The notes under the pieces were generated by a model that saw nothing but the letters and a program-made list of their open reading frames with translations, ran no database searches and was not told the DNA's origin. Shown here in pieces: positions 2,874-20,406 of a stretch of DNA of 27,376 bases; the stretch's first letter is position 1, and every line of letters starts with the position of its first letter. The stretch comes from an uncultured Deinococcales bacterium (GTDB taxonomy: Bacteria > Deinococcota > Deinococci > Deinococcales > JAAFIG01). The stretch lies in NCBI GenBank assembly GCA_964247135.1, contig CAXTTL010000035.1, forward strand, positions 1 through 27,376. The letters run 5' to 3'. A program made the position numbers and the translations under genes.

Positions 2874-3500
2874 TCATTGTTTACCTTGGCTGTTTATGCC
2901 GTGGGTTCTTGGGTTGTGTGTTAATAAGTCAAAAAGTTCGTGTAACTCGAGGTTTGGCTCAGTCCATGGCTCAAACCTGCTGAATTGTAAAGTTCTAAAA
3001 GTTAAAGGGCTGAATACCATCATGAACAGCGTCATGGCGCACGCGAGAATCCACATTGCTGCCCAAAAGGTGATTTCAAATTGCGATTGACCCGAAAGGT
3101 GTCTGGCGAAATAGATCATATAAATGGCTGGTGCCGCTAAGATCAAGCAGTTTATTGAGTGAACTCGTTGTGTTTGTCGCACAGCTTTGGTGAAATCTTT
3201 CAATTGCAGGGCAGCTATCGTTTCAATCGGTGGTGACCATTTCAGGTTTTGGTGGTACAACCGATTCCCATGTGCCTCGAGTTCTAAATCCTCGAGTGTG
3301 AGTTGTCCAGCCTCGAGCGCCCCTTCGTTTAGCTTGACGCGTTCGAGCCGAACACTGCCCCAAAGTGCTTTTGGGATTGGCTCGAGCCATGATTTCAGTG
3401 TTTTTGAATTTGTTGTGTTCAATTCCAGTGCGCGTTGCGACGCTTGCTGGGCTTCGTCGTTTTTGATGGCTGCGGCAAGGGAAATGGGTGGGTTTTGCAT
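2874..3500 (-). CDS. Hypothetical 2-TM membrane protein, paralog of 8275-8883
   Basis: AAAGGA-cacc-ATG at 3500 (MQNPP). Shares KSWLxPIP, VxLExVK, QLxL..LxAxGxxLxHxN and WxEPxxEL with 8275-8883. Confidence 0.75.
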   Translation of the reverse strand: MQNPPISLAAAIKNDEAQQASQRALELNTTNSKTLKSWLEPIPKALWGSVRLERVKLNEGALEAGQLTLEDLELEAHGNRLYHQNLKWSPPIETIAALQLKDFTKAVRQTQRVHSINCLILAAPAIYMIYFARHLSGQSQFEITFWAAMWILACAMTLFMMVFSPLTFRTLQFSRFEPWTEPNLELHELFDLLTHNPRTHGINSQGKQ

Positions 3501-3611
3501 GGTGTCCTTTGAGTGAATCATGGTTTCAATACGGGTCGGATCAGTGTTTGGTTGCAGGGCATTATTTGTTGATGGCATTTGTTTGATGGTTTTGATTGAA
3601 CGAACCTTAAA

Positions 3612-3653
3612 TTCAATGTTAGCGTTTTGCACTAATGGGTCGTCAAATCCCGT
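3612..3653. repeat. 42-bp direct repeat copy 1 (promoter/operator-like), overlaps the recombinase stop codon
   Basis: 39/42 identical to 9332-9373. On the minus strand it reads TTGACG-N19-TAACAT with the imperfect dyad TTAGTGCAAAACGCTAA. Confidence 0.85.
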
Positions 3654-4746
3654 TCTCGAGCCTCGCATCGCCTGCCTCAACCGCCGCCAAAAGATCATCT
3701 GTGTCCAAGGTTGCATAAATTTTCGTGGTGTCCAGACTCGAGTGCCCCAACAACCCACCGACCACGTGTAAATCTTTGGTCGCACGGTAGGTTCTCGTGC
3801 CAAACGCCCGGCGCAGCGCGTGAACTCCACCGAGGCGATCTGCTTGCTTGACTGCCATGAAAAACCGATCTACCACGCGCCACGCCCCCGAGTTTGAGAG
3901 TTGCCCGCCGCGATTGCGATCCGACAGGCTCAAAATCAGCTTGGTGCTGGATTGGTCCGGGCGGTGCTCGAGCCAATTTTTGATCAGTTTTGAGAGTCGT
4001 TTGCTGATTGGAACTTGGCGGTCTTTGCTGCCCTTGCCGTGAACATAGAGGATGGTGTTCGAGATATCATTCAAATTCAATTCCGTGATCTCGGACACCC
4101 GTAACCCGGCAAGTAAACCCAAACCCAAAAGCAACTGGTCTCGAGCGACGCGGGTTGGGTCGTTCGGGTATTCTTCGCCCGGTGCGGTTAACAGCGCGTT
4201 GGTTTCAAGGTCGCTTAGAACTTTGAACTGTTTGCCTTTGGGGGTTTGCACCCGTATGCGGTGGACTGCCTGGGCGGGACTGTGGTTCATTGCTTTCGCC
4301 CAGACCAGTGCCTCGAACAAAATTGACACGCCTGCGAGGTAAAGATTTCGGGTTCGTGGTTTGAGGGGTTTCTCGTCCGTGGATTCGGTGTGACGGCTCG
4401 GTTTGGGATGCTCGGACTTGGGTTTCTTGACGCGCTCGAGTTGGTCTCGAAAACGCTCGAGGTCATCCTGGGTGGTTTTGACGATTTCCACGCGTGGGTT
4501 CTCGGTGAACTCGAGCCACCGTGCCACCGCGACGCCGTACATGATGATGGTTTTCCGACTGAACGTGCCATGTTTGTGGCGCAAATACGCTTCAACCAGT
4601 TCGACCAAAGCGGGCAAGTCCCTTGCTTGTGCGGCTTTGTGCGCCTCGCGCCTTCGGTTTTCGGGATGCGTGAACCGTGATTGGAGCACCAGTTCAAAAC
4701 CTGAACTCGAGGACGGCGTGACTGTTGGCTCGAGCGTTTGGGTCAT
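3643..4746 (-). CDS. Tyrosine recombinase (XerC/D-like integrase/resolvase)
   Basis: All catalytic motifs present: GLRVSE (R), GKGSK (K), HALRR (HxxR), LLGHSS (H), TKIYA (Y). ATG 4746 overlaps the upstream stop (ATGA). Confidence 0.95.
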   Translation of the reverse strand: MTQTLEPTVTPSSSSGFELVLQSRFTHPENRRREAHKAAQARDLPALVELVEAYLRHKHGTFSRKTIIMYGVAVARWLEFTENPRVEIVKTTQDDLERFRDQLERVKKPKSEHPKPSRHTESTDEKPLKPRTRNLYLAGVSILFEALVWAKAMNHSPAQAVHRIRVQTPKGKQFKVLSDLETNALLTAPGEEYPNDPTRVARDQLLLGLGLLAGLRVSEITELNLNDISNTILYVHGKGSKDRQVPISKRLSKLIKNWLEHRPDQSSTKLILSLSDRNRGGQLSNSGAWRVVDRFFMAVKQADRLGGVHALRRAFGTRTYRATKDLHVVGGLLGHSSLDTTKIYATLDTDDLLAAVEAGDARLENGI

Positions 4747-5219
4747 GGCTTGAGTGACCAAAGTGTCAAGACTCGAGCGAATTGTCCGATGGTGAGAATA
4801 ACGCTGACCACAAGGCTCACCACAAACAGTTGTGCGGGAGTAAATGCCATGAGTGATAGGATGATTTGTGCAAACACCGAGCCAATCCATATTTTCGAGC
4901 ACCATTCAAAGCCTTGTGTTGTGTTTGACAACCTTATTGACCAATGCTGCCAGAAACGGTACTCCCAGTTCGGTGGCTGATTGACATACAGTTGTTTCAG
5001 GTGTTTGACACTGTTCTCGAGCAACCTGAAGACTGTCAGTAAAAACAACAGCAAAAAGAGCACTTGGAGCGGTTGAACATTGATCACTCGGCTCAAGACA
5101 AACGCGAAACCTGATATGAAAATCCAGCCCAACGGAGAAGGGTTGGTTAAAAAGCTGAAAAATTTTTCACTTTGCTGGCTGAAGCTTTTCAGCAAGGGAT
5201 GACTGCTCTGGGTGTGCAT
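4743..5219 (-). CDS. Hypothetical 4-TM membrane protein, paralog of 10342-10824
   Basis: GGAGG upstream of ATG 5219 (MHTQSS). Shares TNPSPLxWI, EYRxWQ and GQxxRVLxLWS with 10342-10824. Confidence 0.75.
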   Translation of the reverse strand: MHTQSSHPLLKSFSQQSEKFFSFLTNPSPLGWIFISGFAFVLSRVINVQPLQVLFLLLFLLTVFRLLENSVKHLKQLYVNQPPNWEYRFWQHWSIRLSNTTQGFEWCSKIWIGSVFAQIILSLMAFTPAQLFVVSLVVSVILTIGQFARVLTLWSLKP

Positions 5220-16129: not shown

Positions 16130-16217
16130 ATGAAGCATCGAAATGTACTCTGGCTTGCGAGGTTGCGATAAACGAGAACGTGCGCAAGGCTGATATCTTG
16201 CCATGAGTGCGTTTAGC

Positions 16218-16982
16218 TTAACGAGCCGCGCGATACCCAGCGGCTTGTGCGTCTGCAACCGTCGCAAAACACGCCACCGCTCGAGTTCGCGCATAATTTG
16301 CATCCCCTTGCGGCAAATGGTAAATCCCCGACCGCGAGCCTTTGATCGGCGCAGATTCTGGGCAAGAGCCATCGGGGTTCGGCAAGACCAAACCAACGGG
16401 CTGAGACGGCGTTGGAACAGTCGCTGGGGGTTCAGAGGGCTGAATGGCTGGCGAGCTGGGTTGTGGGGTATTTGGCACCACACCAGGGGGTGTGGGGATC
16501 ACCTTTGAAGGATCGCTGCCGTCCGTGAGGTTTCCGAGGTAATCCTTGTACGCCTGTGGCCAGTTGGCAGCGATCTCTTGCTGCACTTGTTTAAGGTCTA
16601 GCCTTCCGCTGCAAACCAGATCACGCAGCGCGTTTTCCAAGCGGTCTTTGATCCGATAGTTTAATGGACTCGTGAAGCCCGCCTCGGGCCAGAGATTGCG
16701 CACCGAGTTCGAGCCACCCAACTCGAGCGCCACCAAGTGATCCACCTCCCAATCCTCGCCCACTTTTTTGACCAGACCATACATTTGGAAAACCTGGCGC
16801 TTGGTCGCGGCGGAGACATTGCGAACTCGAGCCGAATACCCACTGACACAAACCACGTTGGCATCTGAAGTCAGAACATCGCCTGGGGTGAGGCTCGAGT
16901 CGGGGATCATCGGTGGACTCGAACTTTGTGCCAAGCCCAAGCCGAACCAGACCAGTAGCAAAGTGAACAAACGTCGTTTCAT
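16218..16982 (-). CDS. Secreted HNH-like endonuclease with C-terminal Ada-metal-binding-like domain
   Basis: Signal peptide ending GLGLA/Q; EVDHLVALELGGSNSVRNLWPE; Pro-rich linker; CP...IKG...IYHLP...CF....AQAAGYRA; leaderless TAGATT-N6-ATG. Confidence 0.8.
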   Translation of the reverse strand: MKRRLFTLLLVWFGLGLAQSSSPPMIPDSSLTPGDVLTSDANVVCVSGYSARVRNVSAATKRQVFQMYGLVKKVGEDWEVDHLVALELGGSNSVRNLWPEAGFTSPLNYRIKDRLENALRDLVCSGRLDLKQVQQEIAANWPQAYKDYLGNLTDGSDPSKVIPTPPGVVPNTPQPSSPAIQPSEPPATVPTPSQPVGLVLPNPDGSCPESAPIKGSRSGIYHLPQGDANYARTRAVACFATVADAQAAGYRAAR

Positions 16983-17020
16983 CGCCTTAATCTACACGCT
17001 CGAGACGAATACCAAGTCGA

Positions 17021-18952
17021 TCAATTTAAATTCACGAAGACCATCGCCGCGTCCTCAAAAACATCCGGCACTTCACCGAGTTCCGTCCGAAACCGCGAAC
17101 GCAACCGCTCGAGTTCCTGCGTGGCATGACCGCTGCCTTCAAGTCCATAGACCGCTTTGAGCAACATAATCGCAATGCTGGCATCGACGGGATTGACCTC
17201 GAGCAAGGCGCGAGCCAAGTTGCGACACGCCTCGAACGAGCCTCGAGCCAAGAGGTCTTCAATCACGTTTAATCCAGCGCTGCTCAATTCCCACTCGAGT
17301 TCGCTCCTGAAGTTGATGACCCATTCGCTTTCCGAGTTTGGCAAGAAGCGCCCCGCGTGGAGGGCAAGCGCCCGTTGCAAACTGCCTTCGGTTTTCAAAC
17401 TCAGGGCGCGTTTGACCTCCGCCGCATCCCACTGGACGCGCATGCCTGGATGCTCGAGCTGGTAGGTACGTGTGGAACTATCAAACGGGATCGCCAAGCC
17501 TTTCAAATGCAGTCGGATAAAATCGCGAATCACATGGACGTGTTTTCGCCCGTGGGTCGGGGATTTGTCGCCAAAGACATTGGTTTGCAATTGCTCAAGT
17601 TGGCAGTGTTGGTTGGTCAGCATGTAGGCGATCAGTTCGACCGTCCGCGCCAAGCCCGAGGTCACATGGACCCGATGCCCGTCGAGCGACAATCCGATCT
17701 CGCCCAGGGTCGTGAGTTGGAGGGTTCTTGGGGCGTGCTGCTCGAGCGCCCGCCAGTCGTCGAGCAGGATTCGGGCGTAGGCATCGCCGGGCAAGACCGT
17801 AAGATTTTCAAAGACATAGGGCAAATCCCGTACTTCAAGGGCGAAACTCCCGCCAGCGCCGCAGGCGTGCCTCGCATCGCTGGCGCGTCTGAGGGCGCTG
17901 TTGGCTTGACCGCGTTGCTCGAGGCGGTAATGCAGCTCGGCGATCTGCAAGCAGACCAAACCCAGCTCGCGCTCGAGTCCGAGTCGCTGAAACGTCTCAA
18001 CCGCCCGCTCGAGCAAGGGCAGGGCATCGGGGTTGTCGGCACGCACCAGCAGCGCCCCGTAATCCCAATCGAGGTGTGCCAGTTCGATGGGCGAATCGTG
18101 GTTGACCAGCCCTTTGGCGCGGCTCAAATGGGCGCGAGCCACCACCAACGCCTGGGTGGAGAGGGCGACATGGGCGGCATAAACTTCGGCATAAAATTCG
18201 GCTTCGGGTTCACGCCGTTCTCGCGCCAGGGCGGCGCATTCGAGAAAGGCAATCATGGCCTGCTCGTACAAACCGCTGAACAACAACCATTGCCCCTCGC
18301 GGTAACGCAGGTGTCCCAGAAAACTGGTTTGGCACTCGCCGACTCGGGCTTCACTCAGGTCGGCTTTGGAGGCGATCAGGTCGCCCAAATTCATGTGGCA
18401 GATCGCCCGTTGGGTCAGCAGTTCGACGCGGCGGTTCGGTGTGGCTCGCTCGAGGCTGAGGTTGAGGTGGTCAATCGCCCGCCCATCCTGACCGGCATGG
18501 GCGAGGACATAGCCCAGCAGTGAACTGAGGCCTGGCTTTAAAAACGCCGCACTGGGTTGGCTGGCCGTCTCGAGGGCACGTTCGAGGGCGTGAACCGCCT
18601 GGCGGTATTCGCCTTTGGCGTACAAAATCGCGCCGCGTTCGCGCTCGAGCAAGCACCAGCCAATCGCATCCAACTCGGACGGCTTGATCGTCTCGAGGAT
18701 TTCCTCGGCTCTGGCTGGCTGACCCAAGATTCGGTAGACCGTGGCGAGCAGCACTCCAGCCGCTTCAAAGCCCAAGGCTCGAGCATGGTTCAGCCGCTCG
18801 AGGGCTTCGACATTTCGTCCCAGGTGGGCCAGGCACAAGCCCGCCCAGCCACCGTCCTCGGCGCTGGGATCGGTCAAGCCCAGAAAATGTTCGTATCCAA
18901 GGGCGTATTGCCCAGTGGCGACACAGTCTTTGATGGTGGTGTGGTTCAACAT
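17021..18952 (-). CDS. TPR-repeat / winged-helix / BTAD transcriptional regulator
   Basis: About 400 aa of TPR-like helical repeats; then LQLTTLGEIGLSLDG...ELIAYML (OmpR/SARP-type wHTH); then WDAAEV...LALHAGRFLPNSESEW...LLEVNPVD (BTAD). Confidence 0.88.
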   Translation of the reverse strand: MLNHTTIKDCVATGQYALGYEHFLGLTDPSAEDGGWAGLCLAHLGRNVEALERLNHARALGFEAAGVLLATVYRILGQPARAEEILETIKPSELDAIGWCLLERERGAILYAKGEYRQAVHALERALETASQPSAAFLKPGLSSLLGYVLAHAGQDGRAIDHLNLSLERATPNRRVELLTQRAICHMNLGDLIASKADLSEARVGECQTSFLGHLRYREGQWLLFSGLYEQAMIAFLECAALARERREPEAEFYAEVYAAHVALSTQALVVARAHLSRAKGLVNHDSPIELAHLDWDYGALLVRADNPDALPLLERAVETFQRLGLERELGLVCLQIAELHYRLEQRGQANSALRRASDARHACGAGGSFALEVRDLPYVFENLTVLPGDAYARILLDDWRALEQHAPRTLQLTTLGEIGLSLDGHRVHVTSGLARTVELIAYMLTNQHCQLEQLQTNVFGDKSPTHGRKHVHVIRDFIRLHLKGLAIPFDSSTRTYQLEHPGMRVQWDAAEVKRALSLKTEGSLQRALALHAGRFLPNSESEWVINFRSELEWELSSAGLNVIEDLLARGSFEACRNLARALLEVNPVDASIAIMLLKAVYGLEGSGHATQELERLRSRFRTELGEVPDVFEDAAMVFVNLN

Positions 18953-19059
18953 TGGTTTTTGCGTCGCTCAACCGAATTGGACATTTTTTGGATTTTCTTG
19001 CACGGGCGTTGATCGTGCGGATCATAACCTGCCGACGATTCATCGAAACGGAGGCAGGT

Positions 19060-19179
19060 ATGAAATTCATCCACAAGCATTGGTTGATGTTTTTGGCGAC
19101 GCTCGTCCTTGGAGCGCTGCAAGTGGCGCTCGCGCACGGCGGCGGTGCCAGCGGTGGGGGCGGTTTACCAGGGGGTTAA
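19060..19179 (+). CDS. 39-aa secreted Gly-rich propeptide, candidate signalling peptide
   Basis: GGAGG-caggt-ATG 19060; MKFIHKHWLMFLATLVLGALQVALA/HGGGASGGGGLPGG with an A-x-A cleavage site; divergent from the TPR regulator. Confidence 0.75.
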   Translation: MKFIHKHWLMFLATLVLGALQVALAHGGGASGGGGLPGG

Positions 19180-19219
19180 AGCTTGAGGGATCACTTGAGC
19201 CTGAGTTGAGGGCTGTGCG

Positions 19220-19252
19220 TTGGGGCGCTGAGAACTTGATTGATCGCCCCAA
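19220..19252. terminator. Possible hairpin between convergent genes
   Basis: TTGGGGCG-N17-CGCCCCAA; no clear U-tract. Confidence 0.25.
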
Positions 19253-19382
19253 TGATCACGGGCTTGATTGACTTGCCATTGATTTGTGGCTTCAAGACGT
19301 TCAATCGAACTGGCATTTGACGTTGACTTGCCACATCGCCATGATGGCTGACCTTGAGACTTGGATTGAGAAAAGCTTGTCT

Positions 19383-19880
19383 TTATCCAGCCATCATATG
19401 CTTTGATTTTTCTTCCAGCGCAAGTTTGGCGATTTGAAGCCATAAGTTGTGAAAACTCGAGCCGAGCGGGGTGACCTCTTCACCTGTGACAATCACGATG
19501 TCCCAGCCTTCAACGATGTGCTCCAGTCCTTCGGCAAGTCGAATCGCCAAGCGGTGTTCGTGCGCTGGATACAGTGAATGGGGGATATCGATTTGTTTTG
19601 AACCTTTGTAGTTCGCGGGTTGATTCTCGAGCAGTTGTCGGATTTCAATCAGTGCCTCGATATCGATTTCGTTGTTTAACTGTGCCATTTCTTGCTCCTT
19701 TTTCTGCGTTGTTGCGACGCTCAGTCGTTTACTTGCTTCGAACCCAAATGGGTCATGTTTACCCTTGCGGCTGCTTCCCTTGACCAAAGTCGAGCCATCT
19801 TCAAGTTGATAAATTTCGCTGGCTCTTGATAGATCGAGTGGGATTTTTAAGACATGGGTTTGGTTTTGTTTGGGTTTCAT
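19383..19880 (-). CDS. Hypothetical protein
   Basis: AAGGAG RBS before ATG 19880 (MKPKQ); a second in-frame AAGGAG-ATG at 19688. Confidence 0.6.
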   Translation of the reverse strand: MKPKQNQTHVLKIPLDLSRASEIYQLEDGSTLVKGSSRKGKHDPFGFEASKRLSVATTQKKEQEMAQLNNEIDIEALIEIRQLLENQPANYKGSKQIDIPHSLYPAHEHRLAIRLAEGLEHIVEGWDIVIVTGEEVTPLGSSFHNLWLQIAKLALEEKSKHMMAG

Positions 19881-19890
19881 CGATGCTCCT

Positions 19891-20406
19891 TCACTGCTTT
19901 GACGTGTCCGATTTCGTATCTTTGGTTTTTGCAACATTCGCTGCCGTTTGCTGTGTTTCCGTAAGCAAATATCCTTTACCTTCAAGGATTAAATTTTCGA
20001 TGCCCTGCATTCGATGGTGTCCGCTGACAAGGATTTGAGAATTAAGCGAACTCCACAATCCGCAAATTTGCTCAAGCGTGAGGTTCAACGGTATCTCGAG
20101 GTTCTCTGGGTGGTTCAACACCTGTTGATAGATTGTGACCGCTGCTGCTGCTTGACCAAGTTTGTGCAAGGTCATGGCACTCTTCAACAAGGTCGCAAAG
20201 TCATTGGGGTGTTCGCTGAGGATTTCGCTGTACAAGTTCTGAGCAGCTTGATAGCGTTGCTGGGCAAAGTACAGATTGCCCAACACGGCTCGATCATCAT
20301 CGTTTTCGTCGAATTGATCAAAGGCGCTGATCAGTGCCCTTTGGGCGGATTGGATGGTTTTGGTGAATTGCGAAAGTTGTTCGATTGGAATGGGCTGTGG
20401 TTTCAT
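19891..20406 (-). CDS. TPR-repeat protein
   Basis: GAGGAGG RBS; LGNLYFAQQRYQAAQNLYSEILSEHPND and AMTLHKLGQAAAAVTIYQQVL TPR motifs. Confidence 0.8.
   Translation of the reverse strand: MKPQPIPIEQLSQFTKTIQSAQRALISAFDQFDENDDDRAVLGNLYFAQQRYQAAQNLYSEILSEHPNDFATLLKSAMTLHKLGQAAAAVTIYQQVLNHPENLEIPLNLTLEQICGLWSSLNSQILVSGHHRMQGIENLILEGKGYLLTETQQTAANVAKTKDTKSDTSKQ

Follow-up and report, generated by a model that had tools for sequence, protein, structure and literature searches.

A divergent gene pair encoding a TPR–SARP regulator and a small pre-peptide in Deinococcota: a candidate peptide signalling circuit

Does a regulator that lies head to head with a very small gene read the product of that gene as a signal, or does it only control it? 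This question is raised by a contig of an uncultured Deinococcales bacterium (CAXTTL010000035.1), the whole of which, 27,376 bp, forms the window analysed here; the genome comprises 5.09 Mb in 386 contigs and is 84% complete. The regulator gene (17021..18952, minus strand) encodes 643 amino acids, in which no signal peptide or membrane segment was seen. It diverges from a 39-amino-acid open reading frame (ORF; 19060..19179, plus strand), which reads MKFIHKHWLMFLATLVLGALQVALAHGGGASGGGGLPGG, across a gap of 107 bp (18953..19059). A GGAGG ribosome-binding site (19050..19054, plus strand) stands 5 nt ahead of the ATG and is invariant in three aligned cassettes. The first 25 residues of the small product (19060..19134, plus strand) resemble a signal peptide, with a basic n-region and a 13-residue hydrophobic core, and end in A-L-A ahead of His26; they are followed by the predicted mature peptide, the 14-residue Gly-rich tail HGGGASGGGGLPGG, and the stop codon (19135..19179, plus strand). 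A preliminary description of this DNA had listed the regulator, the gap, the small ORF, its ribosome-binding site, the signal peptide with its ALA site and the 14-aa cargo, and each was found as stated. It had also proposed that the two genes form a communication circuit analogous to the RRNPP systems of peptide-sensing receptors. The results presented below show that the pairing of the two genes is family-wide and statistically strong, and signalling is, on balance, its best-supported interpretation, a judgement made largely by analogy.

The gene pair and its peptide

Homologous loci were drawn from 41 related genomes, 20 further regions and a survey of 364 Deinococcota genomes; the regulators compared are 24–82% identical to the query. 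The criteria for a partner ORF were set in advance: a divergent ORF of 28–60 aa, starting at most 200 bp away, with Lys or Arg near the N-terminus, a hydrophobic 9-mer and a last stretch of 10 residues rich in Gly, Pro, Ser or Thr. The result showed that 32 of the 47 regulator-homologue loci with usable upstream DNA scored, three loci at contig ends being skipped. Applied to the 2773 crude genes of 200 aa or more in this genome, these criteria picked out 19, three of which are paralogues of the regulator, leaving 16 of 2770 genes outside the family; the pairing rate is about a hundred times this background. Seven further typical ORFs missed by the preset criteria were found by eye, and three loci were atypical by eye (one with an ORF of 81 aa, the other two with the ORF at distances of 317 and 474 bp). 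Among more distant genomes and other families, an ORF was present at all 12 added loci, eleven of 34–47 aa and one of about 81 aa. Over all 59 loci, a lenient automated pick found 52 ORFs and curation gave 54, with L044 dropped and L015, L032 and L046 added by eye. The expectation in the preliminary description that homologues would retain an adjacent small ORF with a signal-peptide-like start was borne out in both the preset and the curated count.

The pairing spans four Deinococcales families as well as named Deinococcus plasmids. The genome studied here itself holds four further relatives of the regulator, and each of those with upstream DNA lies opposite a small divergent ORF whose product starts like a signal peptide and ends in a short tail rich in Gly. 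On the comparison of these loci, both genes are evidently real and have been kept together across the order. At L044 and L045, the small peptide ORF is replaced by a divergent gene, some 300 bp off, whose product begins with a lipobox-like stretch (L-V-A-C-G-S).

The signal peptide was judged by a crude heuristic combining hydrophobicity with an AxA site and by conservation, and the pattern recurs in the family, whose pre-peptides are mostly 33–55 aa long. A second copy of the cassette in the same genome (contig C311; regulator 82% identical) encodes the identical 14-aa tail through different codons. The tails of the two copies differ at 6 codons, all synonymously (tail counts include the stop codon), and the preceding 18 codons show 4 synonymous and 6 non-synonymous changes. 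Compared with the copy in a sister genome (G005; a 75% orthologue), the tail shows 9 synonymous changes and one conservative change of Ser to Thr. For the three comparisons among the window copy and its two closest copies, the ratios of synonymous to non-synonymous changes were 6:0, 9:1 and 9:1 in the tail, and 4:6, 7:5 and 4:7 in the preceding 18 codons. In 12 same-length pairs, which share loci and are not independent, the counts were 62:33 for the tail and 35:53 for the signal part. Judged by these codon counts, the mature tail is evidently under purifying selection and the signal part evolves faster.

Across the family, the tails are 8–25 aa long, rich in Gly, Pro, Ser and Thr, and often open with Asp-Pro or Asn-Pro directly after the A-x-A site. 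They differ among regulator clades and are conserved inside a clade, most of all at the C-terminal end, and paralogues in one genome have different tails. The peptide genes are duplicated in tandem at L004, L012 and L013, and the tail motif occurs in two or three copies inside one ORF at L024 and L025. By analogy with known systems, clade-specific tails, duplicated peptide genes and repeated tails are features that would be typical of pheromone genes. A subclass of tails (L054, L055, L057, L058, L042 and L034) has a C-x-x-C end, which suggests a disulfide-closed or metal-binding C-terminus.

Searches of NCBIfam assigned the peptide to no family and matched the regulator only weakly, to generic TPR entries. 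The DNA of both named plasmids that were inspected contains the small ORF, which their PLSDB gene tables omit, such tables being incomplete by design. On contig C137 of genome G000, an orphan ORF of 39 aa, hydrophobic at its start and with a family-like tail, lies next to a 336-aa ORF (minus strand; script coordinates 3356..4364 of the reverse complement) that encodes a secreted protein and not a regulator homologue; the orphan could be a chance ORF or a stray propeptide gene. In the Deinococcus sp. KNUC1210 plasmid, an S8 serine peptidase gene (L087, 3908..5230) follows the unannotated peptide ORF on the same strand, with EAL and HD-domain genes nearby; at this single locus it is a candidate for a processing protease.

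Regulator fold and phased repeats

Pfam searches of the regulator found TPR_2, TPR_12, TPR_8 and TPR_1 above their cut-offs (aa 40–360) and BTAD at aa 524–629 (25.6 bits against a cut-off of 22.1; 28.9 bits when the C-terminal half was searched). The Pfam sequence search did not detect a winged helix-turn-helix (HTH) in the regulator, and no HTH family was found at the N-terminus. The AlphaFold2 model of the full regulator (predicted local distance difference test, pLDDT, 91.1; predicted template modelling score, pTM, 0.82) showed helices at residues 7–404, a strand/helix unit at 409–517 and a helical bundle at 522–640. In this model the sensor half (aa 1–405; 17738..18952, minus strand) is an all-helical TPR-like superhelix of about 23 helices, and the output half (aa 406–643; 17024..17737, minus strand) has the form of a SARP module, an OmpR-type winged helix followed by BTAD.

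Residues 401–643 (243 aa) were also modelled alone, with a pLDDT of 91.0. A Foldseek search of this model against the PDB returned just six chains at E ≤ 1e-3, all of them AfsR (8k60, 8hvr; TMq 0.70–0.72) or EmbR (2ff4, 2fez; TMq 0.66–0.68), and because these are the sole fold matches at that threshold the C-terminal half is assigned to the SARP modules. A single-sequence search of this half against PDB sequences gave nothing meaningful, and a profile search found AfsR weakly (0.0023). The models therefore return the domain order that had been proposed for the regulator, with a TPR-like sensor first and a winged HTH–BTAD output last. No NB-ARC/NOD ATPase was found by Pfam, and in the model the TPR helices run straight into the winged helix.

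Using VIA-align, the sensor half was found to align with Rap, NprR and AimR over nearly the whole receptor at a root-mean-square deviation (rmsd) of 3.4–3.9 Å, against 4.3 Å for domain III of MalT. In an independent alignment to 48,161 representative chains, the top seven included MalT domain III (30.4), Rap (27.3), NprR (25.9) and AimR (23.6). As modelled, the sensor half is of the kind that transcription factors use for small ligands or peptides, and is as near to the RRNPP receptors as to anything solved. It contains conserved Arg and Glu residues (R104, R278, R328 and E373). Family members are 630–680 aa long, and their identity to the query is similar for the whole protein and for the C-terminal part; these identities give no sign that the sensor half is diversifying faster than the output half. 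A complex prediction for the sensor (aa 1–405, with alignment) and the 39-aa pre-peptide scored 0.02 against a mark of 0.32, was run without controls, and speaks neither for nor against binding.

The DNA between the two genes contains three hexamers, TTGGAC, TTGGAT and TTGCAC, phased by 11 and 10 bp (18977..19003, plus strand), the last of which lies at the presumptive −35 position for the peptide gene. A possible −10 element, ATCATA (19021..19026, plus strand), lies 17 nt past the third repeat, in the intergenic block that is best conserved in the three-way alignment. The phasing of the hexamers is retained in the 82% paralogue and the 75% orthologue. In the family, 45 upstream regions were long enough for a repeat test. 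A 9-mer repeat with at least 8 of 9 identities occurred at offset 11 in 10 of the 45 and at offset 12 in 5 of the 45, and other offsets from 4 to 30 gave 0–3. Overall, 13 stretches scored, whereas 200 shuffles averaged 0.65 and never exceeded 4; a version of the test based on exact runs gave 11 of 45 against a mean of 0.67. The arrays end 38–67 nt ahead of the peptide ATG and 10–153 nt from the regulator start; because the former distance is narrow and the latter wide, the repeats are assigned to the peptide promoter. Their sequence varies from clade to clade. In the available text of a review, SARPs are described as binding direct repeats in 11-bp units that overlap the −35 element (PMC10972967), and we infer that the phased repeats are a candidate binding site of the regulator.

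A scan with consensus promoters and terminators did not flag the proposed peptide promoter and found no terminator after the peptide gene; the former result is not unexpected for an activator-dependent promoter, yet it is not support either. An inverted repeat, TGATC-N5-GATCA (19010..19026), lies between the proposed −35 and −10 elements, in the best-conserved block of the three closest cassettes, and may be an operator for a second factor.

A peptide circuit and its rivals

With moderate confidence, we favour an RRNPP-like autoinducing peptide circuit, outside Bacillota and with a different output domain. Beyond the gene pair, the selected tail, the two folds and the fixed-distance repeats, the loop would run by analogy as follows. 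The small gene would give rise to a 39-aa pre-peptide, which would be exported by the Sec pathway and cut by signal peptidase after A-L-A, releasing the 14-aa Gly-rich peptide. The peptide would build up outside the cell and re-enter it, presumably via one of many oligopeptide permeases; PF00496, the oligopeptide-binding family, has 26 matches in the genome, which make uptake possible and are a permissive point only. Inside the cell, the peptide would bind to the Rap/NprR-like TPR groove of the cytoplasmic regulator, and binding would switch the SARP module on the 11-bp-phased repeats at −35, so that the peptide promoter would be activated in a positive feedback. In part of the family, neighbouring genes for an HD_5-type phosphohydrolase, a GGDEF protein or a PAS kinase may link the circuit to second-messenger signalling.

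Several points weigh against this circuit. The case is drawn from sequence and models, and the loci behind it, being taken from related genomes, are not independent of one another. A search for sequencing runs covering 16200–19400, RNA included, returned none. Gly-rich tails offer few side chains for specific recognition, and the tails of different paralogues are alike. Deinococcota have an outer envelope layer, which any signal would have to cross twice. No small ORF was found in 5 of the 59 loci (L027; L043, whose regulator has an internal stop; L044; L045; L056), and others are atypical, with 81-aa ORFs at L016 and L086 and distances of 217–474 bp at L032, L042, L077, L081 and L082. In a plain Foldseek search with the full model, only generic TPR proteins filled the first 50 ranks; MalT domain III came 50th and RRNPP receptors did not appear, their fold matches having emerged solely with VIA-align. 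The fold match cannot by itself separate a peptide receptor from a small-molecule sensor, given that MalT domain III ties with Rap. Phased repeats pass in just 13 of 45 loci, and those of the window are imperfect hexamers. A stringent pattern made from the window repeats found no site in the genome beyond the two cassettes from which it came, a regulon search that is uninformative because it is circular.

Some of these points count towards the main rival, one-way control, which we consider unlikely. Here the SARP-type regulator would activate its neighbour, the secreted Gly-rich peptide would be an extracellular product for the envelope, the matrix, metal binding or antagonism, and the TPR domain would sense another ligand, a metabolite or a protein, in an arrangement resembling AfsR and afsS. 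The repeats ahead of the peptide gene indicate control from regulator to peptide only, the best fold match is shared by Rap with the small-molecule sensor MalT domain III, and AfsR with afsS offers a precedent for a SARP with a small-ORF target (PMC10972967, available text). However, the alignments to Rap, NprR and AimR span almost the full receptors and have a lower rmsd than that to MalT domain III, the mature tails, at 8–18 aa, are very short for a structural or antimicrobial product, and keeping a separate 640-aa regulator for each of several peptides in one genome would be a high price for a simple product. Tails that are specific to a clade or repeated, and peptide genes that are duplicated, suit the diversification of a signal. 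One-way control explains the tails and the pattern of one regulator per peptide less well than the peptide circuit does.

It is improbable that the small ORF is the precursor of a modified peptide or of a bacteriocin-like toxin, with the regulator as a pathway-specific activator. SARPs classically activate biosynthetic clusters (PMC10972967, in the text available), the C-x-x-C tails would suit such a product, and at one locus, L015, a gene that is thioesterase-like by its translation adjoins the peptide gene. Against this, the cassettes at the 59 loci have no conserved neighbour that would encode a modifying enzyme, an immunity function or a dedicated exporter, the leader resembles a Sec signal peptide and not the leader of a ribosomally synthesized and post-translationally modified peptide, and the duplicated unit consists of two genes only.

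Quite improbable, too, is action of the pre-peptide before or without export, whereby the regulator would sense the precursor or the Sec load, or the peptide would be a private envelope cue. The regulator and the pre-peptide would initially both be in the cytoplasm, and the outer layer could hinder release. However, a fast-evolving signal part combined with a conserved tail is the pattern of a released product and not of a sensed leader. It is hardly credible that the small ORF is a fortuitous reading frame of divergent promoter DNA: it is short, Gly-rich, set in GC-rich DNA and missing from the incomplete gene tables of two plasmids, but its conservation across the family contradicts chance, being in frame and with a ribosome-binding site across regulators of 24–82% identity, with synonymous changes dominating the tail and a rate some hundred times the background.

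Known systems, distribution and meaning

The favoured peptide circuit was compared with known systems. RRNPP_detector applies five criteria, among them a receptor of 250–500 aa (PMC10075063, available text). The cassette agrees with this signature in its propeptide (10–100 aa), in the TPRs of its receptor and in the direct neighbourhood of the two genes; Sec-type export of the propeptide is suggested by n-, h- and c-regions and an AxA-like site, identified by a crude heuristic only, and the receptor, at 643 aa, exceeds the range of about 250–500 aa. Owing to this length, and because the DNA-binding domain and its position differ, the cassette is not filed as an RRNPP member. RRNPP receptors have an N-terminal XRE-type HTH (NprR, PlcR, Rgg, PrgX and AimR) or, in Rap, an N-terminal three-helix bundle without DNA binding, whereas the cassette has a C-terminal SARP module, Gly-rich peptides and a Deinococcota host, and its sequence similarity to these systems is at the generic TPR level only.

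The likeness to Rap-Phr and NprR-NprX would lie in a cytoplasmic TPR-type receptor encoded beside a small Sec-type pre-peptide gene with a short C-terminal active part, and in a modelled sensor fold of the Rap/NprR/PlcR/AimR type. Both also have many paralogous pairs per genome and propeptides that are duplicated or repeated internally; multiple peptides per propeptide and multiple propeptide genes are described for the RRNPPA group (PMC9765709, in the part available). The cassette would work like an RRNPP system as far as sequence can tell. The earlier proposal of an analogous circuit stands in part: the gene pair is conserved, and the analogy gains strength from a sensor fold nearest to Rap, NprR and AimR.

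In the Rgg-SHP systems of streptococci, the receptor and peptide genes share a short intergenic region, from which they are transcribed in opposite directions, and the receptor switches on the promoter of the peptide gene. The cassette is alike in its divergent genes and differs in that the HTH of Rgg is N-terminal. The short hydrophobic peptides (SHPs) are hydrophobic, have no Sec signal and are exported by PptAB, according to the available text of PMC10075063. AfsR, a large SARP of Streptomyces, is alike in its SARP module and has a TPR-type domain too; the cassette regulator differs in its reversed domain order, with the SARP module C-terminal, and in having no NB-ARC/NOD ATPase. We know of no evidence that afsS encodes a secreted peptide. 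AfsR activates this adjacent small ORF through direct repeats in the afsS promoter (PMC10972967, PMC10936776, both in part), and in all SARP classes treated in the available text of PMC10972967 (small, medium, large and SARP-LAL) the SARP domain is N-terminal. By its modelled fold, winged helix plus BTAD, the cassette regulator is a SARP with its module at the opposite end from all of these reviewed classes, and the target-site pattern of SARPs, direct repeats in 11-bp units overlapping −35, can be read in the cassette DNA. MalT is a STAND (signal transduction ATPase with numerous domains) activator that senses maltotriose and has an ATPase and a LuxR-type HTH. Its domain III matches the sensor fold, and MalT has no partner peptide gene. 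A search of the open literature on RRNPP, peptide signalling, SARP, BTAD, TPR and Deinococcus found no such system described, in agreement with the earlier statement that no characterized system of this form was known.

A profile search at E ≤ 1e-40 found the regulator family in 162 of 364 Deinococcota genomes. The family to which the window belongs had matches in 17 of 18 genomes, and the family containing a large genus (g7) in 82 of 125 (g7 itself, 69 of 111); two families with small genomes had 5 of 68 and 0 of 23. In a fourth family (f2) 57 of 128 genomes matched, most of them through shorter proteins spanning profile positions 8–555 only. These shorter relatives (e.g. L027 and L029) are about 555–620 aa long and seem to be without most of the BTAD; L027 was the one locus of this kind looked at, and it showed no peptide ORF. 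All ten plasmid matches, from a set of 72,556 plasmids, were in Deinococcus, and close homologous loci lie in metagenome-assembled genomes of Deinococcales, which agrees with the assignment of this DNA to Deinococcota in the preliminary description. Cultured, sequenced strains carrying the cassette include Deinococcus gobiensis I-0 (plasmid P2), D. ficus, D. taeanensis and Deinococcus sp. KNUC1210. A search of 1.84 billion cluster representatives gave 487 matching proteins at E ≤ 1e-30, and on this count the family is modest and taxon-restricted. The Atlas lists BTAD+TPR clusters that look similar in domain content in other phyla, namely Chloroflexota, Pseudomonadota and Actinomycetota.

The C311 copy matches the window at 17019..19178 only, with 79% nucleotide identity, and homology stops exactly at the peptide stop codon; on this alignment the unit of duplication is evidently the two genes and nothing else. 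An HD_5 phosphohydrolase gene recurs as a neighbour in 11 of the 59 loci, mostly just downstream of the regulator, a PAS-histidine kinase gene in 3–4 and a PAS-GGDEF gene in 3; other neighbours vary, and the chromosomal and plasmid contexts are diverse. Both cassette genes and the gene after the regulator have a G+C content of 56–61%, against 44–53% in the remaining contig and 52.6% in the genome. That following gene (16218..16982, minus strand) begins 38 bp past the regulator stop and encodes a protein of 254 aa whose N-terminus resembles a signal peptide and whose C-terminal part holds a 'sunset' domain (NF051437, 48.8 bits), with a weak Ada_Zn_binding match besides; in the closest orthologous cassette an IS240-type transposase gene stands in its place. 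A separate 171-aa TPR-only protein is encoded 0.7 kb past the peptide gene (19891..20406, minus strand).

The contig, with 49.5% G+C, also carries a tyrosine integrase gene (3643..4905, minus strand; Phage_integrase, 93 bits; phrog_1) among mostly family-less ORFs, and may be an integrative element. A PHROGs search with 10 window proteins gave the integrase and one weak tail-protein match, with no phage structural hallmark otherwise, and no tRNA was found in the window. The final 53–54 bp of the contig (27323..27376) recur at 100% identity on contigs C280, C386, C208 and C110, at least once at the end of the contig, and look like a dispersed repeat that breaks the assembly. A phage origin of the cassette was considered and rejected: tblastn against 50,697 phage records gave no match and the contig bears no phage hallmark. 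The suggestion that a mobile element uses the pair to sense the density of its carriers found no specific support, as the integrase comes without a phage hallmark and the cassette occurs in many chromosomal and plasmid contexts.

Peptide quorum sensing through cytoplasmic receptors is, to our knowledge, regarded as peculiar to Bacillota and the mobile elements that they carry, and we know of no peptide-based cell-to-cell signalling in Deinococcota. The principal tool for detecting such systems was applied to Firmicutes and viruses, and it leaves out receptors of more than 500 aa (PMC10075063, available text). The peptide genes, missing from the gene tables of two records, are a case of systematically overlooked micro-ORFs. 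Because the cassette occurs in cultured, sequenced strains, the idea of a peptide circuit is directly testable. If it is true, RRNPP-type cytoplasmic peptide sensing would not be confined to Bacillota, its sensor fold having been recombined with a quite different DNA-binding module, and peptide communication would reach another phylum with a different envelope. The TPR sensor acting through a SARP activator would be a new wiring of a pheromone sensor to transcription, and the SARP family would gain its first peptide-controlled member. More tentatively, Deinococcota may share a phylum-wide peptide pheromone language, in which a genome would make several orthogonal Gly-rich peptides and read each of them with its own fusion of a Rap/NprR-like sensor to a SARP activator; in part of the family the cassettes would feed cyclic di-GMP turnover and lifestyle switching, and cassettes would travel as 2.2-kb units on plasmids and islands.

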